Shown: in pieces, positions 5,250 to 33,362 of the stretch
How the letters are laid out: every line of letters starts with the position of its first letter
Position numbering within the stretch: the first letter of the stretch is position 1
From: Phaeovulum sp.
GTDB lineage: Bacteria > Pseudomonadota > Alphaproteobacteria > Rhodobacterales > Rhodobacteraceae
Assembly: GCF_041596715.1 (NCBI RefSeq)
Contig: NZ_JBFHIA010000001.1
Coordinates: 1-50,810 of the forward strand
Direction: 5' to 3'
Length of the DNA stretch: 50,810 nucleotides
Position numbers and translations under genes: made by a program
The notes under the pieces: model-generated
Seen by the model: the letters and a program-made list of their open reading frames with translations, nothing else
Told to the model about the DNA's origin: nothing
Databases searched by the model: none

Positions 5250-5776
5250 TCACGCTCACCGGAGCCCCGGTTCTGCACACCGCTCGCCTGACGCTGCGCG
5301 TTCCGGCGATGCGCGATTGGGAAGCGTTCGCCGCCTTTCTCACCTCGGATCGCGCGAGCTATGTCGGCGGCCCCGTCACGCGCGAGCGCGCATGGCGCGC
5401 CTTTGGCCACCTTGTCGGCCACTGGGTGCTGCGCGGCTACGGCATGTTCGCAGTAGCGCAAAAGGGCACGGATGAAGCCTTTGGCATGGCCGGCCCGTGG
5501 TTCCCCGAGAACTGGCCCGAGCAAGAGTTGGCCTGGAGCATTTGGTCCCCCGAGGCCGAAGGCAAGGGCTATGCATTCGAAGCTGCCCAAGCCGCACGCA
5601 ACTATGCTTTTGGCGTGCTCGGCTGGGCCACTGCTGTCAGCTACATTGACCCCGAAAATGCGCGCTCTATCGCGCTGGCTAAACGCCTTGATGCAGTGAT
5701 TGAACCCGGCGCGGCGCATCCCGGCGACGAGCCGACGCTGGTGTTTCGCCACTCAAGACCGGAGACCCTCGCATGA
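5246..5776 (+). CDS. GNAT-family N-acetyltransferase, paralogue 3
   Basis: MITLTGAPVLHTARLTLRVP..EGKGYAFEAAQAARNYAF. ATGA overlap with paralogue 2. Confidence 0.75.
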   Translation: MITLTGAPVLHTARLTLRVPAMRDWEAFAAFLTSDRASYVGGPVTRERAWRAFGHLVGHWVLRGYGMFAVAQKGTDEAFGMAGPWFPENWPEQELAWSIWSPEAEGKGYAFEAAQAARNYAFGVLGWATAVSYIDPENARSIALAKRLDAVIEPGAAHPGDEPTLVFRHSRPETLA

Positions 5777-10438: not shown

Positions 10439-11610
10439 CGCCGAGTCCATCCTTCCACCAGCTTCTCCAGCACCTTTTCGTACCAGTGCTCGTACCAGTA
10501 CCACGTCTTGGCGACCATCACGCCGTAGCCCTTGGCGGGCTTGCGGGCATCAAGCTGCTTTGCCAGCAACGTGTGATCGTGCATGTTAAAAGCGCCATGC
10601 CCGGCGGTCTGGACCTTGGTGACGATCTCGGACGGCAGGTATTTCGGCCGCTCGACTTCCTTGAGCAGCACCCGCTCGACGGCTTCGGCCTCCGGCGAGC
10701 CGGGCTTGATGAATTCGACAGCCAGGTCGGACTTTGAAGCTTTGCCGGACACCTTGGGGACGAAGGCAACGCGATAGCGGAATTTCAAGTCGCGTTGCTC
10801 CGCCTCAGAAAGCGAGTTGTGGAAATTGTCCATCGCGGCAGCGATATGCCCTGGCAGGTCCGCGCCGACCAGCCCCGCCCTTTGCGCCCCGTCGAAGGTT
10901 ACGAACTGCAGCGCGATCGGCAGGCGCTTCTCCAGCGCAAATTCCTTGCCGAAAAGCGCCTTGATCGCATCATTGAAGTTGATGCAGCAGGCCTGAAGCT
11001 TGGCGCTCAGGGCATCGTCGATCCGGTTCGTGGAGCGATGCTCGATTTCGTGGCGTATCTCGGTCAGGAAGTTCAGGTTGTTGATGACGCCTTTGTCTAG
11101 CGGGCACTTGCCGTGGGCAAGGCACTGGCCCAGCTCCCAGTATTTGTCTGCTCCCGTGGGTGTCTTTTCAACCGCTCCACCCTTCTTGTAACGGTAGTCG
11201 ATGCCTTCGCGCTTGTAGAAAGCATGGAGGAGGTAGGTCCATGCGATGATACTAGTCACGATGAAGAGCTCAGCCCGAAAATGCAGCCCGGCACTGTTGA
11301 ACGTATGAACGGCGGCGATCATTGCTTCGCGTGCCTTGACCAGCAACTCGTCCCCTTGCAGGTGCAGGCCCGTCGTCGGATCGATGTTCGGCCAAGCCGC
11401 GAGAAAGGCGTCCAGTTCGGCGTCTGTGGCGGGCTTTACCGCCTTGTGCTTCGTGCCGTCCCGGATTTCGGAGACGCGGGCATGATTGATTGATCGTGTG
11501 GGTCGCGAAAAATAGGACTGAATGTCTTGCGGAATGTACTTCCGGGCCAACATGGTCTTGACGAGAGCCACCTCCCATTTCTCAAGGGTATTACCGGGCC
11601 GACGTGCCAC
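10435..11610 (-). CDS. Conserved hypothetical protein, DUF3644-like
   Basis: 391 aa. Core AMIAAVHTFNSAGLHFRAELFIVTSIIAWTYLLHAF resembles DUF3644 as I recall it. GTG start preceded by AAGGGGG. Same strand as res, 39 nt downstream of it. Confidence 0.6.
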   Translation of the reverse strand: MARRPGNTLEKWEVALVKTMLARKYIPQDIQSYFSRPTRSINHARVSEIRDGTKHKAVKPATDAELDAFLAAWPNIDPTTGLHLQGDELLVKAREAMIAAVHTFNSAGLHFRAELFIVTSIIAWTYLLHAFYKREGIDYRYKKGGAVEKTPTGADKYWELGQCLAHGKCPLDKGVINNLNFLTEIRHEIEHRSTNRIDDALSAKLQACCINFNDAIKALFGKEFALEKRLPIALQFVTFDGAQRAGLVGADLPGHIAAAMDNFHNSLSEAEQRDLKFRYRVAFVPKVSGKASKSDLAVEFIKPGSPEAEAVERVLLKEVERPKYLPSEIVTKVQTAGHGAFNMHDHTLLAKQLDARKPAKGYGVMVAKTWYWYEHWYEKVLEKLVEGWTRR

Positions 11611-11649
11611 GCTGCCCCCTTAGACGATTCCCACGGGCCTGTCTTTGCA

Positions 11650-14646: not shown

Positions 14647-14658
14647 GTGCGCCTCCTC

Positions 14659-16731: not shown

Positions 16732-17498
16732 AATTCGTTGCGGATCGCCTCGATGCGATCACTCAGTTGCTTGATCCGGGTGTTCAGGCCGACCTGCGTC
16801 CCCAGGTTCTTCTCCTTCTTCAGCTTGTTGCGGGTTTCCACTCGCTCCTGCTGAAGCTTGTCCATCTGTCGCAAAGCCTCAAGCCTAACGGCTTTCGGCT
16901 TCTCGCCCGCTCCAGTCACGTATCGACCCGAATGGGCACCGCAGTTGAGCGCGATGATGCGGCTCACCGCGTCCTGATAGAAGTCATGCAGGTTGCGGTA
17001 GCTGAAATTGGTGATTCGGAAGTCGGCCAGAAACGCCGCCTCGACCGGTAATACTGCAGCCGTGTCGATCCAGCCCGTGTCGTAGGTTGTCTCCACCACG
17101 ATCTTGTTCGCGTCCGCACGGTTGATGCGCTTGTCGGCGGCGCTCAGCGCCAGGCGGGTCCCGCTGACGAAAAAGATCAGCAACGGATAAGGGATAGCTT
17201 TCTGGATCACCGTTGCGATCCGCGTATGCCGTTCGATGGCGCTCAGCACGACCTGAAGGACGGCAATCTCAAGATACTCGTGGGTGTCGTCTTCCAGCTT
17301 GGGAATGTTGATGGTGGACGGCTTAAGGGTGAAGCGCCATTCGATGCTCTCGATGTCTTCGACGAAGGCCTTCTTGTCCGCCGCCCCCAGTTGGCCGTGC
17401 TCATAGAACTGCTTTTTGAAGATGCGCTTGCCGAGGACGCAGGCCTCAGACACGGCCATGTTCTCGTAGAAATCTTCGACGCTGCGGATCACGGTCAT
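16728..17498 (-). CDS. DUF4391-like protein with C-terminal coiled coil
   Basis: 256 aa between the SNF2 helicase and mod, with ATGA overlaps on both sides. Family call is from memory of this gene context. Confidence 0.6.
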   Translation of the reverse strand: MTVIRSVEDFYENMAVSEACVLGKRIFKKQFYEHGQLGAADKKAFVEDIESIEWRFTLKPSTINIPKLEDDTHEYLEIAVLQVVLSAIERHTRIATVIQKAIPYPLLIFFVSGTRLALSAADKRINRADANKIVVETTYDTGWIDTAAVLPVEAAFLADFRITNFSYRNLHDFYQDAVSRIIALNCGAHSGRYVTGAGEKPKAVRLEALRQMDKLQQERVETRNKLKKEKNLGTQVGLNTRIKQLSDRIEAIRNEL

Positions 17499-20400
17499 GG
17501 CGCGTTCACCACCATGTAGCTGACCACCTCAAAGTCCTCCATGCCTTGGAAGCTGTCCTTGGTCAGGTTGGTGCCGCCCCGGGTGAACAGGCTTTCGACG
17601 CCCTTTTCCTCCGATTTGCCGACAATGCTAGCGACGGCCACCTCCAGCAGCGTGCGGTAATGGCTCATGTCCTTGCCGTTCCTGGTCACGGCGTTCTTGC
17701 GTGCTATGGCCGCGCTATCGGGACTGCGCTTGCCGTGCCCCTGCTTCTTCAGGATGTCGAGGATCTTCTTGGACTGCACAAAGTTAAGCGGCACGGCACC
17801 GTCATCGGCCACATAGGTCAGATAATACGGGGCGAGCGCGTAACCGTCCTCGCGGTTTAGGGGCTTGCCGATATTCTTCAGGCAGAAGATCACGCCGGGC
17901 GGCACGCCGTCGAGCTTGAGGGCGGCATCCAGTGAGGCTGCGGCATGCAGACCGGTCGGTGCCCGCTCCAACAGCTGGAGATGATCCTTCATGAAGGCGG
18001 ACAGGTCCATGCGGAAGTCGTTGAGCGTCAGGTCTGTGATAGAGACGCCGCCCGACAAATCCTCAAGATCGACGACCGTGCTCTGGAGCTGGTGAAGCTG
18101 CTTGCGACGGTATTCCAGGTCATTCATTGCCCCGGCCGCGTCCTGTTCGATCACGTTCTCCTCGCCTGTGGCGGAGATATCGAGCAGGACCATCCGGCCG
18201 CTCACACGCGCTTCAAGGTTGATGTACTCGTCCAGCTCCATATTGGGCCAGAAGTTGACGAGCTGGATCACCTTGTTTTTGGAGCCAAGCCGATCGATGC
18301 GGCCAAAGCGCTGGATGATACGGACAGGGTTCCAGTGGATGTCGTAGTTCACAAGGAAATCGGCATCCTGAAGATTCTGACCTTCAGAGATGCAGTCGGT
18401 CGCGATCAGGAGGTCGATCTGATCTATTGCAGACGGGTCGATCTTGTTCCGCTCCTTGGAAACCGGTGAGAATGCAGCGAGCAGACTGTCGAAATGCGTG
18501 CTCTGGCCCGGCAAGGTCGTTTTGTTGGTACCGCTGCCGGTGATTTGCGCGGCGTAGATTCCCAGCTCGTCCCGTGACCACGCGGCGATATTGTCGTAGA
18601 GATAGGCCGCCGTGTCGGAGAAGGCCGTGAAGATGATGATCTTACGGTTGCCCTGATTGATGGGCGCAGCGCATTTATCGGCGATGAGCTGCCGCAACCT
18701 ATGAAGCTTGGCATCACGCTGCGCTTCGATCTTGCGGGCCTCGTCGAGCAGCATTTGCAGCTTGGCCCGGTCGTCCTCCAAATCCTGCCGCCAGCGATGC
18801 TCATCCATGTCCTTGATGAGGACCTTGACCTTGCGGCCGATCAGATAGTCATCGAACTCCGGCGCGTCGGTTTCGATATCCTCGATCCCCAGCTCTTCAA
18901 GGTCCGACGCGCTGTGGTTCTCCAGCTTATCAATAAGCTTCTCGACCTCGGCGAGAAGCTTGCCAAGCGTGATGGCAAAGGAATTGATTGAGCTTTCCAT
19001 GCGTTTCAGTAGGTTGACGCGCATCAGGTGGATGAGGCTCTGCTCACGATCCACCTGGCGGAAGACGGAGGAGCCGCCCTTCACGGTGATGTCGTATTTG
19101 CGGCTGTACTCCTCGCGCTTGTCTGCCCGAACATACTTGAGGGGCGCGTAAGCGCTGAGGTTCAGCTTGCGGATGGTCCTGTTGATCTCGCGCAGCGCCG
19201 GAAACTGGTTTTCTGTGTCGATATCTGACTTGATGTTGATCGGCCGCAGGCGTTCGGGAAAGGAACCAATCTCGGCGATGTCGTAATATTTCTCGATATG
19301 CTTGCGCGACCGGGCGATCGTTAAAAGGTCCAAAAGCTTGAAGTAGTCGAAGTTCATACTGTCGAGCAACGAATCGACAGTGCGCGCCTCATCGCCGAGG
19401 CGCAGCCAGCTGTTAAACCGTGTTTGGGCCTTGCGCAGCGTCTCCTCGATGCTGTTGATCCCCTGATCGGCATAGGCACGATCGATCCCTTCCGTAATGA
19501 AAGCGACCTGGTTCTTGAGGTCGTTCATCCGGTTGTTCACCGGCGTTGCAGAAAGCATCAGCACTTTCGTCTTCACGCCTGAGCGGATGATCTCATCCAT
19601 CAGGCGCGAGTAACGGGTCAGACCTTCCTTGGCGGAGCTGGCGTTGCGGAAATTGTGAGACTCGTCGATGACAACGAGGTCGTAATTGCCCCAGTTCAGG
19701 GATTCGAGAATGATTTCTCCGGAACGTCCCTGAAGGCGGGTGAGGTCCGTATGGTTCAGGACATCATAATTAAAGCGGTCCGATGCGAGCAGGTTACGCC
19801 GGTCATTGATCGTATAGACTGTCCAGTTATCACGTAGCTTTTTTGGGCACAGAACCAGCACGCGGTCGTTGCGGAGCTCGTAGTATTTTATGACCGCGAG
19901 GGCCTCAAATGTTTTCCCAAGACCCACGCTGTCCGCGATAATGCACCCATTGTATTTTTCGAGTTTGTCGATAGCGCCGAGGACGCCGTCACGCTGGAAT
20001 TTATAAAGCTTGCTCCAGATGGTCGTGTCTTTGAATCCGGTCTTGGATTTGATGATATTTTCCTCGTCGATATCTTCGAGGAAATCCTTGAATAGGTTGT
20101 AGAGCGTCAGAAAATAGATGAACTCAGGCGATTGATCGTCCACGAGCATGTCAAGCTGCTTCAGGAGCAGGTCTTTTGCGTCTATGGTGGCAGCGGGATC
20201 GCTCCAGATACTCTCAAACCAATCGAGCATTGCCTGCGTGCTGGGCGCGTCCGTCGCGCACATGTTCATGTGATGTCGGTCAGAATCCGAGTACCCCAAC
20301 CCCGTGCTTGTGAACGATGAGCTGCCCTGAATGCCCACCGCAGCACCGTTCGAGCCGCGCGCCAGAATCACATTTTGCCCGAAGGCGCGCGGGTTGCGCG

Positions 20401-20752
20401 CCAGCCGAATATCCGCCTTCTCGCGGAGCCACTTCGCACATTCCTTGGCGACCTGCGTCTGATTGAGCTGGTTCTTGAAGCGCAGCTCAAACTCGTCACC
20501 CGCTAGCGCCGTGAAGCGTGGCGTGCTTTCTGCATTATCCTGATCGGGACAGAGAAGGAGGCGCGCACCCTCGACGGACCGCAATTCCTTCTTGAGCGTT
20601 TCGAAGCCGTAGATGGAAAAGAGCGCCGATACGACGGAGAGCTTTGTGCCGTCCGTGAGGTATTTCCGCAACTCGTCGCCCACTTTCCCATTTTTCTTAT
20701 TATCCAGGATCATGGGTTTCCAACTTTTTCCCTGTTCCCTGGGCCTCGACAT
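17495..20752 (-). CDS. SNF2-family helicase with N-terminal PLD-like (apparently HKD-less) domain
   Basis: [75 protein letters not shown]. N-terminus [28 protein letters not shown] resembles PLD-type nuclease domains. An alternative start is at 20713. Confidence 0.88.
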   Translation of the reverse strand: [1085 protein letters not shown]

Positions 20753-21879: not shown

Positions 21880-23207
21880 TGGCACGCCGTCGGGCGCACG
21901 CGCCCCTCAATGTCTTCATGAACGGTCGCCTCGTGGGAACCCTACGCCGCGAATCCACCGGCGCGATCGACTTTCAATATGCACGCGAATGGCTTGCCTG
22001 GGAGAATACCTTTCCGGTTTCGCTCTCTCTGCCTTTGCGCGAAGATCGCTATATCGGCGCGCCCGTCATCAACGTCTTCGATAACCTCCTCCCGGATAGC
22101 GACGCTATCCGCAAGCGCGTCGCCGAACGCGTCGGCGCGGGCGGCACGGACGCCTACAGCTTGCTCACCGCTCTTGGTCATGACTGCGTCGGCGCGCTCC
22201 AGTTTCTCCCGGAAGGCATCAACCCCAGTAAGGCCGGCACAGCGGACGGCAAGCCCGTCTCCGACGACGAGATTGCCGCCATCATCAACAACCTCGTCAA
22301 CGCCCCTCTGGGGATGGGTGAGGATCAAGATTTTCGCATCTCGATTGCTGGCGCACAGGAAAAAACTGCCCTGCTGCGCAAGGACGGACAATGGTTCAAA
22401 CCTACAGGCACCACCGCCACCACCCATATCCTCAAGCCGCAGATCGGCCAGCTGCCGAACGGCATCGATCTCTCAAACAGCGTTGAGAACGAGTATCTTT
22501 GCCTGAAGCTGCTCGCCGCCCTCGGCATGCCGACCGCGCATACCGAGATTGCGGATTTTGGCAACCGCCGGACCCTCATCGTTGAACGCTTCGACCGCCG
22601 CTGGACGAATGACGGCCGCCTGCTGCGCCTGCCGCAGGAAGATATCTGCCAGGCTCTCTCCGTGCCGCCCACGCGCAAATACCAGTCCGATGGCGGACCG
22701 GGGATGCGTGACATCATCCAGCTCTTAAAGGGCAGCGACACACCGGACCAGGACATCGCCACCTTCATGCGTGCTTGTATTCTGTTCTGGATGCTGGGCG
22801 CCACTGATGGGCATGCGAAGAATTTCAGCATCACCCCGGGCCCTGGCGGACGCTTTCGCCTGACTCCTCTCTACGATGTTCTAACTGCACAACCGAGTCT
22901 CGACGCCGGCCAAATCCAGCAGAAGCAATTCAAGCTGGCCATGTCCGTCGGCAAGAACCGCCACTACCCCGTCGACAACATTGTGCCGCGTCATTTCATG
23001 CAAACAGCCGAGCTGGCGGGGGTCGGCTTACCGCTGATGCGAATGATCTTCGAAGACCTTGCCGCGAGCGCCGAAAAACAAACCGATGCCGTTTTAGACG
23101 CGCTGCCTACAGGGTTTCCCGATCAACTCGCTACGTCAGTCAGGGCAGCAGTCAAGAGCCGCACCCGACTTCTTGGCGATCTGTCTGAGGAGCCTGTAAA
23201 TGCATAA
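21879..23207 (+). CDS. hipA: HipA-family serine/threonine kinase toxin
   Basis: LNVFMNGRLVGTL, FDNLLPDS, ISIAGAQEKTAL, GATDGHAKNFSI catalytic loop, TPLYDVL. Start overlaps the hipB stop (TGATG). Confidence 0.93.
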   Translation: MARRRAHAPLNVFMNGRLVGTLRRESTGAIDFQYAREWLAWENTFPVSLSLPLREDRYIGAPVINVFDNLLPDSDAIRKRVAERVGAGGTDAYSLLTALGHDCVGALQFLPEGINPSKAGTADGKPVSDDEIAAIINNLVNAPLGMGEDQDFRISIAGAQEKTALLRKDGQWFKPTGTTATTHILKPQIGQLPNGIDLSNSVENEYLCLKLLAALGMPTAHTEIADFGNRRTLIVERFDRRWTNDGRLLRLPQEDICQALSVPPTRKYQSDGGPGMRDIIQLLKGSDTPDQDIATFMRACILFWMLGATDGHAKNFSITPGPGGRFRLTPLYDVLTAQPSLDAGQIQQKQFKLAMSVGKNRHYPVDNIVPRHFMQTAELAGVGLPLMRMIFEDLAASAEKQTDAVLDALPTGFPDQLATSVRAAVKSRTRLLGDLSEEPVNA

Positions 23208-23814
23208 TCCGGGACGCAGAATCGCTCTTCTCGGGTGGGGTTCGTTATTGTGGGACGAACGGCCCGATTTCGATGAATACCATGAGCCCTGGCAACTCGA
23301 CGGACCGGAGCTACCGCTGGAATTCAGCCGTGTCTCGTCCTCACGCAAAGGCGCGCTGACGCTCGTCGTCGACAATGTGAATGGCGCGCTTTGCCGCTGC
23401 GCCTACGCTCTTAGTAAACGCGGCGACCCCGTCGATGCCATTGCCGACTTACGCTCCCGGGAAGCGACTGTGATGCGGCACATGGGAATCTATTTCCGCG
23501 ACGGCACGCGGGAGGGAGAACCCGAGGTGCCAGCAACCATTCCGCCTTGGGCCAATCGGCTGGGTATTGACGTTGTGATTTGGACAGGCCTGCCCAGCAA
23601 CTTCGAGGAGGTGGTGGGAAGCCCATTCTCCGTCGAAAACGCAGTCCGGCATCTTAAAGAGCTGCCAGCCGAGACAATGACCGGCGCCGCGAAATATATC
23701 TGCCTGGCGCCGGCACTAGTAGACACGCCGCTGCGTCGCGCGCTCCAGGCCGAGTGGTGGTTCGTCAATCAATCCACCGCAGAGACCCCGGGCGCTCCTG
23801 TTCAAAGCGAATGA
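23200..23814 (+). CDS. ChaC/gamma-glutamylcyclotransferase-like protein, coupled to hipA
   Basis: IALLGWGSLLWDERPDF resembles the ChaC FGYGSLMWNP motif, and DLRSREAT resembles the ChaC LWxRE catalytic-Glu region. Start overlaps the hipA end by 8 nt. Confidence 0.55.
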   Translation: MHNPGRRIALLGWGSLLWDERPDFDEYHEPWQLDGPELPLEFSRVSSSRKGALTLVVDNVNGALCRCAYALSKRGDPVDAIADLRSREATVMRHMGIYFRDGTREGEPEVPATIPPWANRLGIDVVIWTGLPSNFEEVVGSPFSVENAVRHLKELPAETMTGAAKYICLAPALVDTPLRRALQAEWWFVNQSTAETPGAPVQSE

Positions 23815-23829
23815 GCAGAGAGACGTGCC

Positions 23830-24243
23830 TCATCGACCGAACCATCTGCCGATCTTCGTCGCAATAGCACCCACCATGCGGGCGAAGAAGCCCTGCGGCT
23901 GAGGGGCCATCGCCTCGACGTCACGTCGATCGCGAGATTTCACCGCCGCAATCCGCTCCGCCGACATTACTGCCGCCCACTGCACGCGGTTACCGCTGAT
24001 CCAATAGTGAGACCGGCAGGGAAAGCTCCAGCTGCCGACCGAAGGACTGAGGGATATGGCTCCGTCACTCTCAATAAGCCGCCACTTCGCAGGGTTCAGG
24101 GGCGTGACCACCTCCAGCCCACAGCCACAGCAGCACAGATGCGAGGCCGTCGAATATCGCTTAGAAATGTACAGGACGCCCGGCGCAAGATTTTCGGGAA
24201 TGAATTCTACAAATTCAGGTTTTATCTGGCCGAGCCGCGTCAT
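23830..24243 (-). CDS. Cys-rich small protein, DUF6527-like
   Basis: 137 aa with HLCCCGCGLEVV and FPCRSHYW Cys/His clusters. ATGA overlap with the E1 gene stop. Confidence 0.55.
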   Translation of the reverse strand: MTRLGQIKPEFVEFIPENLAPGVLYISKRYSTASHLCCCGCGLEVVTPLNPAKWRLIESDGAISLSPSVGSWSFPCRSHYWISGNRVQWAAVMSAERIAAVKSRDRRDVEAMAPQPQGFFARMVGAIATKIGRWFGR

Positions 24244-25415
24244 TTGCTGCCTTCATAAATTATACTGCCTGCAGCGATGCTGAACCCGGTGTAATGTTGT
24301 TCGCGCGTATCCTGATAGAAGCCAAACAGCTTTTTCCACTGGATGACCGCGATTGCCGCATTAAACGCGTTCAACTCGGCGATCTGGATGTTGCTGGCGT
24401 ACTCGTTCGCCCCACCATCCCCGTCCGCGTATGAGATATGCGGCGCCGCCTTCTCATGCGTCTTCGCTGTGCAAGTTGTCGCACGGACGATCCCGCCGAG
24501 CCGTCCTTCGACAAGCACGACGCCCATCCCTACCTCGACAAATGGAGTGTCGTTGGCAACGAGGCGTTCGACGATCTTCTCCTTGATCGGCCCGCGATCG
24601 GCGCAAAGGAAGATAAAGTCGAGGCCGTCCAGCAGGGGGAGGTTATCTTCATCCATATAGACGTCATGGGCGATAATGCCGTTCCGCATCTTCTCGTAGA
24701 TACCCCGGAAGTACGCGACCTTCGCAGGCTTGGTCGCTAGATCTTCCTGCCCCGGCGCGCCCGGGGATCGGAACGCGTTGTGTTGCGAGAAGACGTCGCC
24801 ATCGAATAGATGTAACTCCGCCACGGGCGTCTTGGCTACGAGGTCCAGGACATAGCTTCCAGTGCCACCAAGGCCGATGATTCCGATCTTCTGGCCGGCG
24901 ACCTTTTCGTTAACCGCACCGATGCCGGCCCGGCTCGTGGCCGTATCGACATACTTAAAGACCTCGCCGTCCCCGTCCGCGAGAATCGTTGGAAAGGTCT
25001 GCGCCGTGGCATTCGGATCAATCTTCGTCGCTTCGCCGGTGATGCGTCCGAGATAGGTAGTGATCTTATGGTGATAGTCGCGGTACTTCGCCTTGGCGGA
25101 AAAGGTGAAGTCGGCCTTAACGCCGCTGCCAAACTGCTGGGGTGCCGCGCCATTTTCGATGGACGCTATTTTCCGACCGTCGCTGTGGCACGGGTGTTCT
25201 CCAGTCCAGAACGCCCGGTGATCGCCGGGCGTTCTGGTGACGTCGTCGGACATTTCCAGGGTGGAGATAAGGATGCCGTCATAGCGGACGACAGCCTGGG
25301 ACGTGACATAGGGCACGTTACGAATGAGAAGGTATCCGCCCCAGATTTCGAGGTCGTAGCCTTCGTTCTGAAGGCGGAGCAAGTCCGCGCTACGAGCGAT
25401 TGGTCGGCGTGACAT
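24240..25415 (-). CDS. ThiF-family E1-like adenylyltransferase with a ~170-aa N-terminal extra domain
   Basis: KIGIIGLGGTGSYVLDLV Rossmann GxGxxG and DFIFLCADRGPIK. The N-terminal domain contains GEHPCHSDG. Confidence 0.85.
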   Translation of the reverse strand: MSRRPIARSADLLRLQNEGYDLEIWGGYLLIRNVPYVTSQAVVRYDGILISTLEMSDDVTRTPGDHRAFWTGEHPCHSDGRKIASIENGAAPQQFGSGVKADFTFSAKAKYRDYHHKITTYLGRITGEATKIDPNATAQTFPTILADGDGEVFKYVDTATSRAGIGAVNEKVAGQKIGIIGLGGTGSYVLDLVAKTPVAELHLFDGDVFSQHNAFRSPGAPGQEDLATKPAKVAYFRGIYEKMRNGIIAHDVYMDEDNLPLLDGLDFIFLCADRGPIKEKIVERLVANDTPFVEVGMGVVLVEGRLGGIVRATTCTAKTHEKAAPHISYADGDGGANEYASNIQIAELNAFNAAIAVIQWKKLFGFYQDTREQHYTGFSIAAGSIIYEGSK

Positions 25416-25668
25416 CGAACTCCATGCCCTCCTTGGCCTTTACGGATTGGCCCTCGACAAGAGAACCGGCCGGTTTATTGTCATTGCCGCGCGTGTACTG
25501 GATGGTGAACTGCACGCCGTCGCCGTTGGGCGGGTTTTCGAAAGCAAGCGCGATGACTTCCGCGAAGGTCAGGTCGTCGTTCTTGGGAACCGTCTTCTCG
25601 CGCCCGTTCACGACGATCGTCACGGTCTTCGGTTCGGGCTTGGGGTGTTCTTCAGGCTTGGCCATCAT
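25390..25668 (-). CDS. Ubiquitin-like beta-grasp protein (single multiubiquitin-type domain)
   Basis: TVTIVVNGREKTVPKNDDLTFAEVIALAF..GSLVEGQSVKAKEGMEFDV. AAGGA lies 5 nt before the ATG at 25668. The longer track ORF runs into the divergent promoter. Confidence 0.6.
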   Translation of the reverse strand: MMAKPEEHPKPEPKTVTIVVNGREKTVPKNDDLTFAEVIALAFENPPNGDGVQFTIQYTRGNDNKPAGSLVEGQSVKAKEGMEFDVTPTNRS

Positions 25669-25703
25669 TGATCCTTTCTGGCTAGAGCGCCGGTTGAGAG
25701 GCC

Positions 25704-25777
25704 GATTGCGAATCTGCAACTGGTTTGATAATATCAAGAGACCAAGTGAATTGCAAGTTCGCAATTGATTGCGAACT
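25704..25777. promoter_or_regulatory. Divergent overlapping promoters and palindromic operators between the Ubl operon and the XRE gene
   Basis: Plus strand: TTGCGA (25706) -17- TAATAT (25729). Minus strand: TTGCAA (25751-25756) -17- TATTAT (25733-25728). Palindromes: TTGATAATATCAA at 25725-25737 and AGTTCGCAAT-TG-ATTGCGAACT at 25756-25777. Confidence 0.5.
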
Positions 25778-25792
25778 CTCAACGGAGGGGAC

Positions 25793-26137
25793 ATGACCGA
25801 CAGGTTCGACAACGAGGCTTTTTTTGCGGCCCTTAACGCCGCGCGACTCAGCCGTCAGAAAACGTGGAAGGAGGTGGCGGCCGAAGCTGGCATTAATGCA
25901 TCCACCCTGACCCGCATGAGTCAGGGTGCTAAGCCAGATGTGAACGGGCTCGCGGCGCTTTTGGCGTGGTCGCATCTAAAGGCCGAGATGTTTATCAGGG
26001 GCACCGACGCGACCGAATCTGAGCCCATCGCCAGGATTACAGCGCTACTACGTGCCGACCCCAAACTAACTTCTGACAAAGCCAAGCTTATGGAAGATAT
26101 TGTCGTTAGCACTTACAACAGACTGAAGGATAGCTGA
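25793..26137 (+). CDS. XRE-family HTH regulator (CapH-like position)
   Basis: RLSRQKTWKEVAAEAGINASTLTRMSQGAKP HTH. GGAGGGG lies just before the ATG at 25793. Confidence 0.8.
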   Translation: MTDRFDNEAFFAALNAARLSRQKTWKEVAAEAGINASTLTRMSQGAKPDVNGLAALLAWSHLKAEMFIRGTDATESEPIARITALLRADPKLTSDKAKLMEDIVVSTYNRLKDS

Positions 26138-26138
26138 A

Positions 26139-26708
26139 TTGGGGTTTCGGCGGGGGTTCAAGGCGGAAGCAAACCGCATCGCACTGCGAGTTCGTCAACA
26201 GATGGACTTGGCGGCACATGCGCCGATTGATCCCGCCGCTGTCTGCGCTCATTTCGAGATAGAGCTAATCGACCTGAGCGAACTGGAACCCGACAGCCCT
26301 TTTCTTGGTAAGCATCAAGATGCCTTCTCCGCGGTCACCGTGCCGCGCGGCCTTGCCACTGCGATCGTCCATAATGACCGCCATCACCCGTACCGGCAGC
26401 GCAGCAACATCTGCCACGAGCTGGCCCATTGCTTTCTGGGCCATGAATATGCGGCCCCTCTTCTCGAGAACGGTGACCGCTCGCGCGATAGTGGCATCGA
26501 GGCGGAGGCAAATTTCCTTGCAGGGGTGTTGCTGATTACCAATGAAGCCGCCAATAAGATCATGCTCGATGGCCTGTATCATCAGGCCCAAAACCTCTAT
26601 GGAGTTAGCAAGCCGATGCTGGATTTCCGCTTGCGTGTGAGCGGCGCACAAACAATCCACCAGCGTCGCATGGGCAGTGCTCGGAGATCGTCACACGTGG
26701 GGTCCTGA
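26139..26708 (+). CDS. ImmA/IrrE-family zinc metallopeptidase (CapP-like position)
   Basis: HELAHCFLGH HEXXH motif. TTG start 2 nt after the XRE stop. Confidence 0.8.
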   Translation: MGFRRGFKAEANRIALRVRQQMDLAAHAPIDPAAVCAHFEIELIDLSELEPDSPFLGKHQDAFSAVTVPRGLATAIVHNDRHHPYRQRSNICHELAHCFLGHEYAAPLLENGDRSRDSGIEAEANFLAGVLLITNEAANKIMLDGLYHQAQNLYGVSKPMLDFRLRVSGAQTIHQRRMGSARRSSHVGS

Positions 26709-26801: not shown

Positions 26802-28682
26802 TCATCGCTCCCGCTCAAAATCATCGTCCCGCCCACGTCGCCGCGAGCGCGTGTGCTCGCTCCTGCGCTCGGCACGAGAAATGCGTTTCGGCTCGACGGT
26901 TCCCTCATCTCCGCCGTTATCCCCGTCACCCCCATCACGCGCCGCCTCGCGAAACTGATCCGCGAGCGGCAATTCCGTCCAGTGGGGTTCGGGCGCTGCC
27001 TGGGATCGCGCAGCCGTCGTCTCATCCGCCGACACCTCGGCTTGGCGTTGTCGGGTGCGCTGCCGACGGCGCACGGTATCGTCACCACCACGGCGCCCGC
27101 CACGAGTGCTCTCACCTTTGCCGTTCTTCTCAATGATCGTCCCCTCTGAAGAATTCGTTACGGCCGCCCCGAACGCTTTACGCAAGGCACCGCGATCATC
27201 AGCATCCTGCCGATCGACTGTGACGTTGCTCTCCTGATCCTGACGACGATCATCATGACGATCACGCGCACGGTAACGATCCTTTGCTTTGTGCGGCACA
27301 GCCGATCGACCCTTCGGCTTCAGCGCCAGATTGAGTGCCGGCATATGGTCATGCCCCTGGCGCTGCTGAATGCGTTCTTGTTTGTGCTGCGCCACCTCAT
27401 AGCTTTTCAGTTCCCGCGCCTCGATTTGCGCCAGTGCCCGGACCTCCCGCGCCGCATCGATCGCCTGCAAGGTATGCCGATGCTCCAGTACGCGCCGTGC
27501 CTCCGCCTGCGTCTCTCGGAGCGCCTCTTTCTCCTGTTGGAAGACGGCATGGCGTTGCGCATCACGATGTTTGTGAAGCTTGTTAATGACGAAACTGACG
27601 CCCGTGACCCGGCCTAGAAACGCCGCAAGACCTGTCGGCTTCGCAGCGGCGCGGGCCTGTTTCACCCGTCGGGCATCATCCAGATAGCGCGTGCGCAACT
27701 GTCGCCGCGCCGCCAGCTGCCCTTGCAAAAGCGCGCCAACCTCCTGCCGATGCCGCGCCTGCATCGTGGCCTGCGCCGCCTCGATCTTCTCCCTACGGCT
27801 TGCTTGCGCTGCTTTCAGAAGGTCGAGCTTCTCGGCGTCGCGTCCGGATTTGACAAAATCCTCCCGCGCCTGGCGGTGTGATGCCACCAAAGCCTTGGCC
27901 TCATCCACGGTGGGCAAAGTCTCCGGCGGGAAATCCCGCTCCAGGAAAGCGCGGATGTCTTTCGTGCGGATGCTACGGTCATCGATCAGTTTCGGCAGCG
28001 CATTCATGTTGCCGTAGAGATCGACCAGCACATAGGGCCGGCTCCCAGTGGCGAGCACGTAGCCCATTTCTTCCAGCGCCCGCACAAACGCGCGCGGACT
28101 GTCGCTGCGCTTCCACGCAGCGGTGACGGCAGCCATGCGATCTTCTTTGGTGAGGCCGGAATTGCGCTCCTGCTGCGTCTCGTAGAGCGACTTCTTGCGC
28201 CTAGCATCACCGCCGTGCTCATAGCCGGCAGGAAGGGTCAGCCCATGATCGCGGGCGAACTCCCGCGTGACCATCATCAGCTTGTCATGATCGAAGGGCT
28301 GGTGGATGGCCTTGCCAGCCTGCGCATCGATGCGGGACCAGACGATATGACAATGCTCGCGCCCCTCCTTGATGTGGAACACCAGGGCGCGGGGCTGACC
28401 CGTCAAGCCGAGGGCTTTTTCAACGCGCTCGGCATAGTCGCGGTACTGATCGCGGCTGAGCTGCCCCTGACCGAGATCGGGATTGACCGACAAGCTGTAG
28501 AGGTAATTCCGGCACTTGGTTAGGGAATGCGCGATCGCCTCCCATTCGGCGAACGCGCCGTGCAGGTCGTCGGCGACCGCGCCGCGCACCTCTGCCAGCT
28601 CGACATATTCATTGTCGTGCGCGTTGAGCAGATGGGTGGCGAGATCCTGCCCGCCGGCACGCTGGCTCGCCTTGGGGATCAT
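26802..28682 (-). CDS. Relaxase/mobilization nuclease (MobA/VirD2, MOBQ-like)
   Basis: MIPKASQRAGGQDLATHLLN..YLYSLSVNP..REHCHIVWSRID. The C-terminus is an Arg/Asp-rich low-complexity tail. Confidence 0.88.
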   Translation of the reverse strand: MIPKASQRAGGQDLATHLLNAHDNEYVELAEVRGAVADDLHGAFAEWEAIAHSLTKCRNYLYSLSVNPDLGQGQLSRDQYRDYAERVEKALGLTGQPRALVFHIKEGREHCHIVWSRIDAQAGKAIHQPFDHDKLMMVTREFARDHGLTLPAGYEHGGDARRKKSLYETQQERNSGLTKEDRMAAVTAAWKRSDSPRAFVRALEEMGYVLATGSRPYVLVDLYGNMNALPKLIDDRSIRTKDIRAFLERDFPPETLPTVDEAKALVASHRQAREDFVKSGRDAEKLDLLKAAQASRREKIEAAQATMQARHRQEVGALLQGQLAARRQLRTRYLDDARRVKQARAAAKPTGLAAFLGRVTGVSFVINKLHKHRDAQRHAVFQQEKEALRETQAEARRVLEHRHTLQAIDAAREVRALAQIEARELKSYEVAQHKQERIQQRQGHDHMPALNLALKPKGRSAVPHKAKDRYRARDRHDDRRQDQESNVTVDRQDADDRGALRKAFGAAVTNSSEGTIIEKNGKGESTRGGRRGGDDTVRRRQRTRQRQAEVSADETTAARSQAAPEPHWTELPLADQFREAARDGGDGDNGGDEGTVEPKRISRAERRSEHTRSRRRGRDDDFERER

Positions 28683-29014
28683 GGTTTTCGCCCCAAGGCA
28701 GCGAGACAGGCGGCGCGGATTTCGCGAAGGTCGCGAAGGGCTTCTTCGAGCAGCGCGGCGTCGAGATCAGCATCGACGCCGACCGCCCCCAGGCGGTCAT
28801 GCAGGCGCGCGGTTTCGGCAAGAAGGCGCGCGACTGTCTGCTGCTCGACGGGAGCCCGCCGGGTCTGGCGCGGCGCATCCTGGTCGAAGACGGCTTGGGT
28901 GATGAAGGCATTGACGGACAGGCCGGAGGCCTCGACACGCGCGCGAAACGCCTCCCGCAACGCGGTGGGCGGGCGATAGGATATCGGTGCAGCGCGTGTC
29001 TCTTTCTCCGTCAT
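28679..29014 (-). CDS. MobC-like relaxosome accessory protein
   Basis: 111 aa directly upstream of the relaxase, overlapping it by 4 nt. ISYRPPTALREAFRARVEASGLSVNAFITQAV is RHH-like. Confidence 0.7.
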   Translation of the reverse strand: MTEKETRAAPISYRPPTALREAFRARVEASGLSVNAFITQAVFDQDAPRQTRRAPVEQQTVARLLAETARLHDRLGAVGVDADLDAALLEEALRDLREIRAACLAALGRKP

Positions 29015-29442
29015 GCATCAACACGTAGCCGCATTGATCGGCACCAGACCGCGCGCAAACCGCGCTTGCCGATCCGTCTTCGACTGGCGACACACCTGTC
29101 GCAGCCGCCGCCGGGTCCAGGGGCGCAGCCATGCCCCTGGTCGATGGGATCGCAAAGGGAGAGCAGACATCTCGCCTTTGCTCGAAGCCGGTGCCGAAAC
29201 ACCGGTCGTGGTTCAGGACACGAAAGTCCTGGCCGTGGTTGCAAGGGGCGCGGATAGCCCTTTGCGCGATGGGTCCAGGGAGAGCGGCAGTCTCCATGGT
29301 CGTGATGCAACGCCGAAATCGTTGCGCTCAGCCGGGATGGGTTCGACACCCAAAAGCGCCAGCGCCCGGCTGAAAGCATCCGTTGGACCGAATACGCCAC
29401 AAGCGGATTCGCAGCCTTACGGGTGCCCTGAGGGGGGTCTGC

Positions 29443-29497
29443 GGGGGACTGGAGAGTCCCCCCAGCAAGGTGCGCGTGGTAGTACCATGCACACCTT
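29443..29497. other. Candidate oriT inverted repeats
   Basis: GGGGGACT-ggag-AGTCCCCC (29443-29462) and AAGGTGCGCGTGGTA-g-TACCATGCACACCTT (29467-29497, 13/15 pairs), in the 745-bp gap upstream of mobC. Confidence 0.3.
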
Positions 29498-29758
29498 GTA
29501 CTCATCTCTATCTGGGATTGCCCCTCATACTATAATTGTAGCAGAGCAGCGAGGCGGAATGGAAATGTGCATCCACTCAATCTGACGATGTGACTGGAGT
29601 GTACATCACACTATTTCTGGCCACAACAGCGCGCGGTTTTGACGAGGAAAGCGCCATCAATATTGCACGACATTCATCGCCATCACGCAATGGCACCCTG
29701 ACCTTTCCTGGAATGTACATCACAAACCAACAAAGGCGGTGCAGAAGGATGGTTCACG

Positions 29759-30439
29759 ATGAACATGCATTCTGCTCCGGCGCTCCTGCCGATCAAACCC
29801 ACCCGCGACACCTATGATCGATTCCAGCAGGCATACGAGCATTTCAACAAGGCGCTGTTTGGCAACGAGTTGCCAAACGCGCTGATTACCCTCCAGCGCC
29901 GCAAGGGTACGTTCGGCTATTTCTCCGGCGATAGATTCAACAATAACGAGGGCCGGGCTGCCGATGAGATCGCGCTCAATCCTGCCCGCTTTGGTGATCG
30001 CTCCCTGATCGAAATCCTCGGCACGCTGGTCCACGAGATGGTGCATCTTTGGCAGCATCATCAAGGGACCCCAGGACGCGGGCGCTATCATAACCGCGAG
30101 TGGGCCGACAAAATGAAGAGCGTCGGCTTGCAGCCTACCGACACCGGCGAAGAAGGTGGGAAAGAGACCGGTGAGACGGTCACTCATATCATCGTTCCCG
30201 GCGGCGCGTTCGAGAACGCCGCCCAGAAGTTGATGGCGAGGGATTTCGCGATCACTTGGAAGGAAGCGCCGGCTGCGCTGCTTCCAAATTCCAATGGCGG
30301 CGACGAAGCTGCCGCGACGCAAAAGAGCGGCAAGCGACTGCGCTACACCTGCCCGGACTGCGCGCTAAAAGCCTGGGCAAAGCATGATGCCCGGCTTGTC
30401 TGCGGCGAACACATGGTACCCATGTTGGTCAGCGCCTAA
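29759..30439 (+). CDS. SprT-like zinc metalloprotease domain protein
   Basis: LVHEMVHLWQHH HEXXH motif. C-terminal YTCPDCALKAWAKHDARLVCGEH is zinc-ribbon-like. Confidence 0.8.
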   Translation: MNMHSAPALLPIKPTRDTYDRFQQAYEHFNKALFGNELPNALITLQRRKGTFGYFSGDRFNNNEGRAADEIALNPARFGDRSLIEILGTLVHEMVHLWQHHQGTPGRGRYHNREWADKMKSVGLQPTDTGEEGGKETGETVTHIIVPGGAFENAAQKLMARDFAITWKEAPAALLPNSNGGDEAAATQKSGKRLRYTCPDCALKAWAKHDARLVCGEHMVPMLVSA

Positions 30440-30459
30440 AGCAGCCAAGCCAAAAACTC

Positions 30460-30489
30460 GGGCGCGAACCTCCGGTCCGCGCCCTTTTT
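30460..30489 (+). terminator. Rho-independent terminator between convergent genes
   Basis: GGGCGCGAACC-tcc-GGTCCGCGCCC with one mismatch, followed by TTTTT. An A-run upstream suggests it could work in both directions. Confidence 0.7.
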
Positions 30490-30507
30490 CATGTCCGCAG
30501 CACGCGG

Positions 30508-30783
30508 CTAGAAAAGCGTCATCTGCCGCGCTTTTTCCAGCTGATCCTTCCATGATTTTGTCTCAGCGGCTTGGTCGAGCCAGCCCCGCACGAACGCGAC
30601 CGGCCCACCGGCCTCCGCGATCGTTTCCGCGTCGATGAACCGGGACCGGTATCCTGTTTCGGTTATCGGTAGAGGGTCATTCTCCGGCTCAACGGTACTC
30701 ACCTGTAGATGCGCCGTACTGAAGGACCCTCGGTTCCTAACCAGTTCTGCTCGTAGCGCACTTCGATCGAGAAGCCGCGCCAA
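30508..30783 (-). CDS. Hypothetical protein (island backbone)
   Basis: 91-aa ORF in a same-strand run of small genes. No motif recognised. Confidence 0.45.
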   Translation of the reverse strand: MARLLDRSALRAELVRNRGSFSTAHLQVSTVEPENDPLPITETGYRSRFIDAETIAEAGGPVAFVRGWLDQAAETKSWKDQLEKARQMTLF

Positions 30784-30811
30784 AGGATGGTGTGGGTTTC
30801 AAGGGAGCGCG

Positions 30812-31096
30812 TCATGACGCGCTCCCGTTCATACAATCGATTTCTGAATCCCCTTTCGCAAGAACGAGTGCTTCACGCGCACCCTCGAAGTCCATGGCGT
30901 AGAGATCACCATCGGCATCGAGCATATGTTCAAGTGCCTCAAAGAGACGATGAGATGCGGCAAAAAGACGGGCGGCTTTTTCCTGATCGCCTCTGGACCA
31001 TTCTCCGTTCGTTGATGCGATGGGCACGCCGTTAAGGTGGATCGAAAAGTGAGGCAGTTCGGCACCTGGTTCGTATTGGTATTGCAAATCGTACAT
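30812..31096 (-). CDS. Hypothetical protein (island backbone)
   Basis: 94-aa ORF. No motif recognised. Confidence 0.45.
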   Translation of the reverse strand: MYDLQYQYEPGAELPHFSIHLNGVPIASTNGEWSRGDQEKAARLFAASHRLFEALEHMLDADGDLYAMDFEGAREALVLAKGDSEIDCMNGSAS

Positions 31097-31141
31097 GTCT
31101 GACGACCTCGGTTTGGGGTGGTGAGGAAGATGAGGGGGCGC

Positions 31142-31381
31142 TTACGCGCCCGCCTCCTGATCGGTGTTGTCCTCGGCCGGAACCCGGAGGATGACGCGTC
31201 CGCCATTGACGGGGACCAGATCGAGTTGAAGGGTGTAACCTTCGCCGTCCTTGTGATCCCAGGCGGCGCCGATGCGGGTCCAGAAGGACTTCTCGCCTTT
31301 CTCGTCGACGTGCCAGGCTATAAACGCCGGGGTGCGGGACTCGCGGGCCGGTTTGCGGTTCGGGGTGTTGTTGCGTGCCAT
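31142..31381 (-). CDS. Small conserved island protein, possibly DUF736-like
   Basis: AAGGAG lies 8 nt before the ATG at 31381. RIGAAWDHKDGEGYTLQLDLVP loosely resembles DUF736. Confidence 0.45.
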   Translation of the reverse strand: MARNNTPNRKPARESRTPAFIAWHVDEKGEKSFWTRIGAAWDHKDGEGYTLQLDLVPVNGGRVILRVPAEDNTDQEAGA

Positions 31382-31826
31382 GATGTAAGCTCCTTTCGCT
31401 TGGGTTTTCCTCGACACGCCTCACCTAGGAGCGGGCGGAGAAGCGACGGGTTCACGGCCGATACGCGGGAGGGGGATCGCCCGCCTTGCAGGTTTGCCGA
31501 AAGGCGGGGACACCCGCGTATCACCCCAGGGGCCGAAGGGCCTTGAACCCGGTGCGCGCCCGATCAGGTTTGGCGTGTTCAGTCGAGGGAAATCCCAAAG
31601 CGAAAGGTCGAAGCGTTTCAGGCATGCTCATCCCGGTCGCAGACAAGCCCTGTCCACCACTCCTGCGCAAAAGCCACATGAAGTAGAGACGGCCACCGGT
31701 CGTGTGGCCGCAGCGTCCGCTGGGATCATTACGGCGACCACCTCTCGGCCTCGTCCCGATGGACGCGGTTTGTGCGCGGAATCCAAGCGCGAAGCCCTGC
31801 GATAGTCGGAGCATCTCCAAACAAGG

Positions 31827-33362
31827 ATGGCGCCGATGGACGACTTCTTTACCGACTTCTCCCGCGATATCGCACGCGGCGTGTCCACTCGCTTCCTGCA
31901 CCAGCAGACGGTGCCGCAGGCGCGCTGGCTGGAACCGGCCAAGCTCGCGCACCATGCGGCCATTGCCTATGACCCGGCAAATCCTGGTCGCAAGATCATG
32001 GTCGGAGCACTTGGCTCAAAGCTGATCGGAATCGAAGATAACCGGCATATGATGACGGTGGCGGGATCGCGCACCGGCAAGTCGGTCACGCTGGTCGGCA
32101 ATTTGATGTTCTATCCCGGTTCTGTTCTGGCGCTCGATCCCAAGGGTGAGCTCGCCAACCTGACCGCGCGCCGCCGGGCAAAACTAGGACAGACCATCCT
32201 TGTCCTCGACCCGTTCAACACCTGTGCACCGCATGCGGCCAGGTTTCGCAAGCGCTATAATCCGCTGGCGGTTTTAAAGCCCGACAGCGAAACGATCATC
32301 GAGGATGCGGGCATGATCGCGGATGCGCTGATCGTCCCGGCGGGCAAAGACCCGCATTGGGACGAAAGCGCGCGCAACTTTCTCGAAGGTCTTATCCTGC
32401 ATGTGGCCACTGCGCCGCAGTTCGAAGGCGAGCGCACGCTGATCGCTGTGCGCAGCCTGCTGCGCGACGCGCTATTGGGCGATGAAGGTGAGGAAGACGG
32501 TTTCACGCTAGAATTGGCGATGTTCGCCAATGCGGAGCGCTTGCAGGACGACGCCGATAAAGCTGACATCGCAAACGCGATCGAAAGCGCGGCGCGCGAG
32601 TTTTACGAGAAGCCGGTCAATGAACGCGCGAGCGTTCTGTCGACCACGCGTCGCCACACTAAGTTTCTGGACTACCGTGCGATGCGCAGCGTGCTGTCAG
32701 GACATGATTTCGATCTCTCTGATCTAAAATCTGCCACTGCCAGCGCGACCCTCTATCTCTGCCTTCCCGCCACACGGATGGGTCTGTGCAATCGCTGGCT
32801 GCGCTTGTTCGTCAATCAGCTGATTGACGCGATGGAGCGCACGTGCGTGAAACCGGCGGCACCCGTGCTGGTCTGTCTCGATGAGTTTCCGGTATTGGGT
32901 CATATGCGGCAGCTCGAAGATGCGGCCGGTCAGATCGCTTCTTTCGATGTAAAGCTCTGGGTGTTTCTGCAGGACTGGGGTCAGGGCAAGGCGCTGTATG
33001 GCGACCGTTGGGAGACCTTTGCCGGCAATGCCGGTGTCATGCAGTTCTTCGGCAACAACGACATGATGACCATGGAGTATGTGTCCGGCAGGCTCGGCAA
33101 GACCACCGTCAGCGTCACGCGCGACGGCGAGGTCAGCCCAGAACAAGGCGCTATGGGCCTGGCCGGGCGCTCGACCAGTATCGAGCTGCACCCGCTACTG
33201 ACCCCCGAAGAGGTGAGCCGCCAGTTCGCCCGCAGTGACCGGCTTAAGCGGCAGCTAATCATCTGGGCGGGCCACCACCCGATGATGCTGCAACGTGTCG
33301 AATATTTCGATACGAGCAGTCCGCTGCATGCCGTGTTTGCCTGCAAGTTTGATGCGGACTAG
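31827..33362 (+). CDS. Type IV coupling protein-like ATPase (TraG/VirD4 family) lacking N-terminal TM helices
   Basis: Walker A TVAGSRTGKS and Walker B-like VLVCLDEFPVLG. 511 aa with no hydrophobic N-terminal segment. Confidence 0.85.
   Translation: MAPMDDFFTDFSRDIARGVSTRFLHQQTVPQARWLEPAKLAHHAAIAYDPANPGRKIMVGALGSKLIGIEDNRHMMTVAGSRTGKSVTLVGNLMFYPGSVLALDPKGELANLTARRRAKLGQTILVLDPFNTCAPHAARFRKRYNPLAVLKPDSETIIEDAGMIADALIVPAGKDPHWDESARNFLEGLILHVATAPQFEGERTLIAVRSLLRDALLGDEGEEDGFTLELAMFANAERLQDDADKADIANAIESAAREFYEKPVNERASVLSTTRRHTKFLDYRAMRSVLSGHDFDLSDLKSATASATLYLCLPATRMGLCNRWLRLFVNQLIDAMERTCVKPAAPVLVCLDEFPVLGHMRQLEDAAGQIASFDVKLWVFLQDWGQGKALYGDRWETFAGNAGVMQFFGNNDMMTMEYVSGRLGKTTVSVTRDGEVSPEQGAMGLAGRSTSIELHPLLTPEEVSRQFARSDRLKRQLIIWAGHHPMMLQRVEYFDTSSPLHAVFACKFDAD

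Follow-up and report, generated by a model that had tools for sequence, protein, structure and literature searches.

Is the cluster of ubiquitin-like genes on a contig from Phaeovulum sp. a new kind of conjugation system, or a member of one that has already been described? The window analyzed here is the whole stretch of 50,810 nucleotides (positions 1 to 50,810 of contig NZ_JBFHIA010000001.1, RefSeq assembly GCF_041596715.1). A preliminary description of it, made from the sequence alone, had proposed an operon encoding a ubiquitin-like protein (Ubl), an E1 enzyme and a DUF6527-like protein, with a divergent pair of regulatory genes, that did not match the described gene sets. All five genes were verified in the list of open reading frames (ORFs) of the 20-31 kb region, and their Pfam matches bear out a Ubl conjugation operon (Table 1). 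The reading of the genes was accurate, but the claim that no described system matches them is out of date. The locus is an intact, typical copy of the Type II Bub operon (formerly 6E.2/DUF6527), which encodes BubA, BubBD and BubE, and we put the probability of this reading, with the operon controlled by the divergent helix-turn-helix (HTH) repressor and M78 peptidase pair, at roughly 0.87.

The name Bub (bacterial ubiquitination-like) comes from two papers of the Corbett laboratory defining operons that had gone by the names 6E and DUF6527 (Ye, Gong, Chambers & Corbett, bioRxiv 10.1101/2024.11.21.623953). Conjugation chemistry, which the preliminary description had regarded as open, is reported there to proceed without a catalytic cysteine: the Ubl adenylate is passed to a tyrosine in the E1 crossover loop and then to a serine of the E2, with oxyester intermediates (bioRxiv 10.1101/2024.11.21.623953). 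Mutational support comes from the Type II homolog of E. coli ZDHYS365, in which the BubA conjugate is lost with any one of the mutations R219A, Y342F and S106A, and BubE is described as a Ser-His protease that depends on zinc and cleaves BubA conjugates (bioRxiv 10.1101/2024.11.21.623953). The published definition of Type II Bub, namely Multi_ubiq, DUF6791 with ThiF, and DUF6527, is the Pfam content of this locus. Multi_ubiq matched BubA at 2.6e-14, DUF6791 and ThiF matched BubBD at 1.8e-47 (residues 11-158) and 3.3e-11 (residues 170-363), and DUF6527 (PF20137) matched BubE at 1.7e-22. BubBD also matched the NCBIfam model NF004805 at 2.9e-154, and the protein collection contains at least 7,943 BubBD-like sequences that score E ≤ 1e-10.

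Conservation was assessed over 80 genome loci from many phyla, from which 71 distinct BubBD relatives and 69 BubE sequences were compared. The preliminary description had found no stand-alone canonical E2, but the N-terminal domain of about 160 residues in BubBD is a DUF6791 domain that stands at the E2 position and carries three residues (S106, K108 and H66) that are invariant in all 71 relatives, as are R216 and Y339 of the E1 domain. S106 corresponds to S106 of E. coli BubBD, K108 and H66 fit the "lysine+histidine" published near the E2 serine of Type II Bub, and R216 and Y339 are the counterparts of E. coli R219 and Y342. Among the same relatives there is no conserved cysteine in either the E1 or the E2 domain, the most frequent being C76 (65/71) and C271 (62/71). 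Overall, BubBD is 48% identical to an E. coli homolog of equal length (391 residues). The public gene call (P0001) is 380 residues long and starts 11 codons downstream of position 25415; homologs align from Met1-Ser2, and therefore the start at 25415 giving 391 residues is correct.

Modeling agreed with an E1 fold. An AlphaFold 2 (AF2) model of BubBD, with a predicted local distance difference test score (pLDDT) of 85.5, gave Citrobacter BubCD as its top fold match in the PDB (5.8e-12), ahead of UBA5, MccB and ThiF, and a profile search of the PDB with the E1 domain likewise ranked BubCD first (6.9e-6). The crossover loop around Y339 (residues 332-342) was disordered in this model. When modeled alone (pLDDT 86), the N-terminal domain adopted a topology of helix, beta-meander and long helix.

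BubA is equally typical of its family. Its residues 13-92 align (E 7.9e-9) with the C-terminal ~80 residues (144-222) of the crystallized BubA from E. coli ZDHYS365 (PDB 9cd2), a segment that, judged by its position, is the last of three beta-grasp domains in that protein. The alignment runs to the final serine, with the two proteins ending in ...VTPTNRS here and ...VTQTDKS in 9cd2. The preliminary description had correctly read a Ubl that does not end in glycine, but this is no anomaly: the final residue is Ser in 80/80 loci, where it closes the motif T-x-T-[DN]-[KR]-S, and this count together with 9cd2 establishes a C-terminal Ser as the Type II norm. A search of the text of the Bub papers found no comment on the invariant terminal Ser of Type II BubA. 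We favored the start of bubA at ATG 25668 because orthologs are 89-91 residues long, an AAGGA box lies upstream of this codon, and the alternative 140-residue protein from an upstream TTG, which was rejected, would have its ORF cross the promoter and the start of the XRE gene.

The third gene probably supplies the deconjugating protease that had seemed to be missing. It had been noted that the locus encodes neither a JAB peptidase nor any other deubiquitinase, and there is indeed no JAB ORF in the 20-31 kb region by ORF list and profile scans; yet the DUF6527 gene is BubE, with its dyad and four-cysteine (C4) zinc site intact. Residues C37, C39, C41, C76, S68 and H79 are invariant in 69/69 relatives, and the spacing of 11 from Ser to His equals that of S65 and H76 in E. 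coli BubE. A sequence search of the PDB with BubE returned a chance antibody match only. The motifs reported for the E1 and DUF6527 proteins (GIIGLGGTGSYV, HLCCCGCG and FPCRSHYW) are present in the translations.

Gene order was uniform. Wherever a locus among the 80 was not truncated, BubA, BubBD and BubE were colinear, which extends their association well beyond this genome and is far beyond chance linkage. The 26-nucleotide overlap of bubA and bubBD (25390-25415) and the ATGA at which the bubE start overlaps the bubBD stop are both present in the DNA, as had been described. This overlap was found in 78/78 loci in which bubA and bubBD were both readable, and in each the ATG of bubBD falls within the bubA codons for [DN]-V. 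The final eight codons of bubA and the first eight codons of bubBD are consequently read in two frames. Three distant Bub operons were recovered by blastn against E. coli genomes and used as an annotated comparator: BubBD and BubE of the comparator operon are 48-50% identical to those here, and the gene order and the 26-nucleotide overlap are the same. Translational coupling is the probable reason for the universal overlap, which would also lock the two termini in place. A programmed frameshift yielding a BubA-BubBD fusion was considered and rejected: nothing points to such a shift, and the E. coli proteins work when expressed apart, which makes translational coupling the simpler reading.

A Ubl with a ThiF-type E1 might instead work in the manner of ThiF, MoeB or MccB, in sulfur transfer or peptide modification, with the small beta-grasp protein adenylated for thiocarboxylation or other chemistry and no protein conjugated. 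ThiF, MoeB, MccB and TcdA do occur among the fold and profile matches, and NCBIfam models of ThiF/MoeB matched weakly. However, the best matches are BubCD and UBA5-type E1s, the Ubl has no GG C-terminus, and there are no sulfurtransferase, rhodanese or biosynthetic genes nearby. The fused N-terminal domain with its invariant Ser, Lys and His and the constant presence of a dedicated protease gene also speak against such chemistry, and homologous E. coli proteins form covalent BubA conjugates. We consider a sulfur-carrier or peptide-modification function highly improbable.

The same evidence bears on whether the locus could be a novel Ubl defense system unlike all those described, with no E2, no deubiquitinase and a non-Gly Ubl using new chemistry. 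Neither the Ubl nor the DUF6527 protein has a model in PADLOC 2023, whose matches at the locus were all weak, being to Cap2-type E1 models (within the E1 region of BubBD), RmrA and capP, and a sequence search of the PDB with BubBD alone found no match. Because PADLOC 2023 includes no Bub models, a missing match there is uninformative on novelty. In architecture, catalytic residues, C-terminal Ser and regulator pairing alike, the locus agrees with the published Type II Bub family, and the third gene already bears a corresponding name in public annotation, being labeled BubE in precomputed Pfam labels and "ubiquitination-like system serine protease family protein" in the RefSeq annotation of the E. 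coli comparator operon. The gene set is an exact match to Type II Bub, and Table S1 of the Bub preprint contains Type II rows with CapP and CapH genes next to the Ubl gene. It is thus very unlikely indeed that this is a new system; the locus is known in kind, unremarkable within a family that has been described, and no new type.

We next considered how the operon is controlled. A divergent pair consisting of an HTH gene and a HEXXH M78 peptidase gene lies beside bubA, as had been reported. Matches to the HTH protein were weak, with Pfam models HTH_31 (E 0.0099) and HTH_3 (0.012) both below cut-offs and PHROG repressor families at 1.6e-4. Its XRE gene most likely starts at ATG 25793 because a GGAGG box lies upstream and the ortholog in L082 is called at 114 residues (relative loci are numbered L001-L082, L082 being the contig with the closest element and a BubBD 87% identical to the one here). 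The peptidase has the HEXXH motif H93-E94-x-x-H97, a third ligand at E121, and a PADLOC capP match of 5.4e-9 that is confined to profile positions 31-116 of 242. Searches of the PDB with the sequences of either protein gave chance matches only. Iterated hidden Markov model searches for the regulators strayed into ORFs of more than 1,100 residues in L067-L077.

Such pairs are a recognized companion of Bub operons. A CapH and CapP pair adjoins 31% of 544 Bub operons, and many Type II rows of Table S1, several of them Rhizobiales, list CapP and CapH identifiers consecutive with those of the Ubl, E1 and DUF6527 proteins (bioRxiv 10.1101/2024.11.21.623953). Among the relatives examined here, the HTH gene and peptidase are kept together, divergent from and adjoining bubA, in L002-L008, L013, L018, L038 and L082. 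The intergenic region between the pair and bubA contains three palindromic boxes, one of which includes the -35 element of the predicted bubA promoter. In the orthologous intergenic regions of L003-L008, L013 and L038, two ATTGC-N5-GCAAT palindromes flank a TATAAT-like box. Conservation of the boxes and promoter among orthologs supports the view that the bub promoter is the target of a repressor.

The likeness to CapH/CapP is nevertheless partial. The divergent HTH/HEXXH pair beside the operon is as the preliminary description had it, but the C-terminal domain of CapP is missing. Characterized CapP and IrrE proteins combine a peptidase, an HTH-like and a GAF domain, with single-stranded DNA (ssDNA) bound in the groove that separates the peptidase from the GAF domain. 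In an alignment, the window's peptidase and its close relatives (~180-190 residues) stop after the linker, whereas other Type II Bub peptidases (~275-310 residues) extend for a further ~90-110 residues. The subclade with the short peptidase, without a domain at the GAF position, consists of the window, L002-L008, L013, L018, L038 and L082. No Cys lies between H97 and E121 of the peptidase, so a cysteine-switch loop is absent; this loop is found in about a third of CapP proteins and is not considered obligatory by the authors who described it. The sequences suggest that the pair may work like CapH/CapP or ImmR/ImmA, with a peptidase that is ImmA-like in size and does not have the three-domain architecture of CapP.

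This resemblance to ImmA raises the question of whether the pair serves the bub operon at all, or is an ImmR/ImmA-type switch governing transfer or excision of a conjugative element, and a mere neighbor of bub. In keeping with the latter, the peptidase is ImmA-sized and without the GAF-position domain, genes for a relaxase, a NikA-like protein, an SprT-like protein and a type IV coupling protein lie alongside, and ImmR/ImmA control the excision of integrative and conjugative elements. Yet the pair is divergent from and adjoins bubA in distant taxa (metagenome-assembled genomes of an uncultured alphaproteobacterium, L008; a member of the Chlorobiaceae, L013; and a gammaproteobacterium, L038), and in these three loci the same operator boxes bracket the promoter on the bubA side. 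In L082, moreover, a YaaC-family gene (4546-5541) splits the pair from the relaxase while the junction of the pair with bubA is unchanged, and longer peptidases hold the same position at other Bub operons. We therefore regard a switch that belongs to the element rather than to bub as quite improbable, and a repressor and peptidase pair controlling a Type II Bub operon as the preferred reading.

Several points weigh against this preferred reading. A Foldseek search of the PDB with the N-terminal domain of BubBD gave Citrobacter BubB (9eae_C) as the best match, which was weak (E 0.1, TM score 0.40/0.49), and canonical UBC E2s were absent from the matches to this domain. Given this weak match, its assignment as an E2 rests on residue conservation and the published description of the family. 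The peptidase is without the C-terminal domain that builds half of the ssDNA groove of CapP, and hence the trigger may differ from that of CapP and ssDNA is not simply to be assumed. Experimental evidence for Type II consists of BubA-BubA conjugates formed in vitro and lost in S106A, Y342F and R219A, together with AlphaFold models (bioRxiv 10.1101/2024.11.21.623953), and the chemistry suggested for this locus is carried over by analogy from the proteins of Type I (Citrobacter) and Type II (E. coli). Finally, the authors saw no phage protection from any Bub operon that they tested.

By analogy with homologs, the system might operate as follows. The repressor would bind the palindromic ATTGC-N5-GCAAT boxes overlapping the bubA promoter until a stress signal activates the peptidase, whereupon the repressor would be cleaved and the operon transcribed. 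The adenylation domain of BubBD would then adenylate the carboxylate of the C-terminal Ser92 of BubA, using Arg216 and the GxGxxG ATP site. BubA would be transferred to Tyr339 of the crossover loop as an oxyester, then to Ser106 of the fused E2-like domain with the aid of Lys108 and His66, and would finally be joined to a lysine residue, whether on a target or on a second BubA. BubE, through its C4 zinc site and Ser68-His79 dyad, would cleave conjugates and so limit or reset the pathway. A role for Bub in phage defense or stress response is suspected.

Table 1. Coordinates of the bub locus, its regulatory region and its neighbors within the window.
Feature	Position	Strand	Description
bubA	25390-25668	-	92-residue Ubl; one beta-grasp domain, short Pro/Lys-rich N-terminal tail, C-terminus ...FDVTPTNRS
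bubBD	24240-25415	-	391 residues; DUF6791 + ThiF
bubBD N-terminal domain (residues 1-158)	24942-25415	-	DUF6791; E2-like domain by position; proposed catalytic Ser106, with Lys108 and His66
bubBD E1 adenylation domain (residues 170-391)	24240-24908	-	GxGxxG loop 181-186, Arg216, crossover-loop Tyr339
bubE	23830-24243	-	137-residue DUF6527 protein; predicted Zn-binding Ser-His protease; hydrophobic/basic C-terminal tail
HTH repressor candidate, CapH/ImmR-like	25793-26137	+	114 residues from ATG 25793; longest ORF 122 residues from TTG 25769
Short M78 (ImmA/IrrE/CapP-family) Zn-metallopeptidase	26139-26708	+	189 residues; Peptidase_M78 2e-13
Divergent promoter/operator region	25669-25792	.	124-bp intergenic region; inverted repeats and promoter scan
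Three ATTGCGAAnnTGCAA-type boxes	25705-25719, 25751-25765, 25768-25782		Inverted-repeat search
Sigma-70-like promoter toward bubA	-35 TTGCAA 25756-25751; -10 TATTAT ending 25728	-	Predicted, promoter scan
DUF3644/PDC-S19 gene	10435-11610	-	Defense cluster (10435-20752)
Type III Res	11650-14646	-	Defense cluster
Type III Mod	14659-16731	-	Defense cluster
DUF4391 gene	16728-17498	-	Defense cluster
SNF2-type helicase	17495-20752	-	Defense cluster; 1085 residues; matches PADLOC 'HKD+Snf2' C3a139
MobA/VirD2 relaxase	26802-28682		Conjugative/mobilization backbone (26802-33362)
NikA-like accessory gene	28679-29014		Backbone
SprT-like gene	29759-30439		Backbone
TraG/VirD4-type (type IV) coupling protein	31827-33362		Backbone

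As shown in Table 1, the locus lies among defense and mobile-element genes. The five genes lie between hipB-hipA and a MobA/VirD2 relaxase, with a Type III restriction-modification island further out; profile scans verified these neighbors and with them the setting given in the preliminary description. This mobile-element and defense-island setting is the one that the authors describe for Bub. Profile scans found neither cyclase nor effector genes at the locus, so its gene set is not that of a cyclic oligonucleotide-based antiphage signaling system (CBASS). No tRNA gene was found in the window. Guanine-cytosine content falls to 0.43 at 15-16 kb, within the Type III Mod gene. On the hipA side, an ORF encoding 204 residues (23200-23814, plus strand) overlaps the hipA stop by 8 nucleotides and seems to be the third gene of the hipB-hipA operon; it had no match in Pfam, NCBIfam, PADLOC, PHROGs or the PDB, and an ORF encoding 190 residues occupies the same position next to hipA in L082.

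The closest element, in L082, has the same backbone, and its five-gene bub cassette and hipA-side neighbors are unchanged. The YaaC-family gene lies there between relaxase and peptidase and is absent from the window, which implies turnover of cargo at the relaxase/peptidase junction. A megablast search of the 21-29 kb region against PLSDB plasmids matched only a hipA fragment of a Paracoccus plasmid, and the element itself is therefore not in PLSDB. Here and in L082 the cassette rides a conjugative or mobilizable element, and the peptidase of the clade lacks a GAF-position domain. One could imagine that the trigger is not direct ssDNA sensing as in CapP but an ImmA-like cue (for example RecA- or transfer-linked), and that Bub serves element-host conflict, or entry and establishment after conjugation, instead of phage defense. 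We think this unlikely and offer it as speculation; if true, an element-host role would be in line with the absence of a phage phenotype in the authors' tests.

The locus adds a further intact Type II Bub operon to a family of thousands. It may be of use to the Bub field in that two features are now sharply documented: the Ser that invariably ends Type II BubA, and the universal 26-nucleotide overlap of bubA and bubBD. The short-peptidase subclade, with its clearly definable operator, offers a simple system for asking which signal switches Bub on, and any Bub member in a tractable host could help to find the biological role of the family.

When placed in context of known systems, the locus shares with the bacterial ISG15-like (Bil) system BilA-D a Ubl and an E1/E2 conjugation pathway in defense islands. 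Bil differs in having a separate E1 (IAD-AAD-CYS) and E2, both with a catalytic Cys, and a JAB deubiquitinase, none of which occurs here, and its anti-phage role is proven. With Cap2/Cap3 of Type II CBASS the locus shares a predicted E2-E1 fusion with a dedicated antagonist peptidase, although Cap2 conjugates the CD-NTase rather than a Ubl, does so via Cys, and is paired with a peptidase of the JAB family. The regulators resemble CapH/CapP, ImmR/ImmA and DdrO/IrrE in consisting of a divergent HTH repressor and a HEXXH M78 peptidase beside the operon, with palindromes over the promoter. Unlike CapP and IrrE, the peptidase ends after a helical linker and has no cysteine-switch Cys after HEXXH, and its size is nearer that of ImmA.

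Within the Bub family, the Type I operon (6E.1) of Citrobacter sp. RHBSTW-00271, which encodes BubAB, BubCD and BubE (PDB 9ea4, 9eae and 9eav), has in common with this locus the oxyester logic (here predicted), the E1 Tyr, the E2 Ser and BubE. Its E2 is fused to the Ubl and its E1 to a JAB peptidase, and processing of the Ubl uncovers a C-terminal Gly, in contrast to the predicted E2-E1 fusion, the lack of JAB and the Ubl made with a free C-terminal Ser found here. Compared with the Type II operon of E. coli ZDHYS365, BubA has one beta-grasp domain instead of three, but single-domain Ubls are listed as a class in the companion paper, and the peptidase regulator is of the short form. This short peptidase without a GAF-position domain, common to a subclade, is the sole small departure of the locus from its family, in which an adjoining peptidase and HTH pair is optional. 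It shares with the E. coli Type II operon the gene set and order, the predicted E2-E1 fusion, the catalytic Ser, Lys and His with the E1 Arg and Tyr, the C4 zinc site and equally spaced Ser-His dyad of BubE, the absence of a JAB peptidase, the location on a mobile element, and a BubA that ends in ...T-[DN]-[KR]-S.

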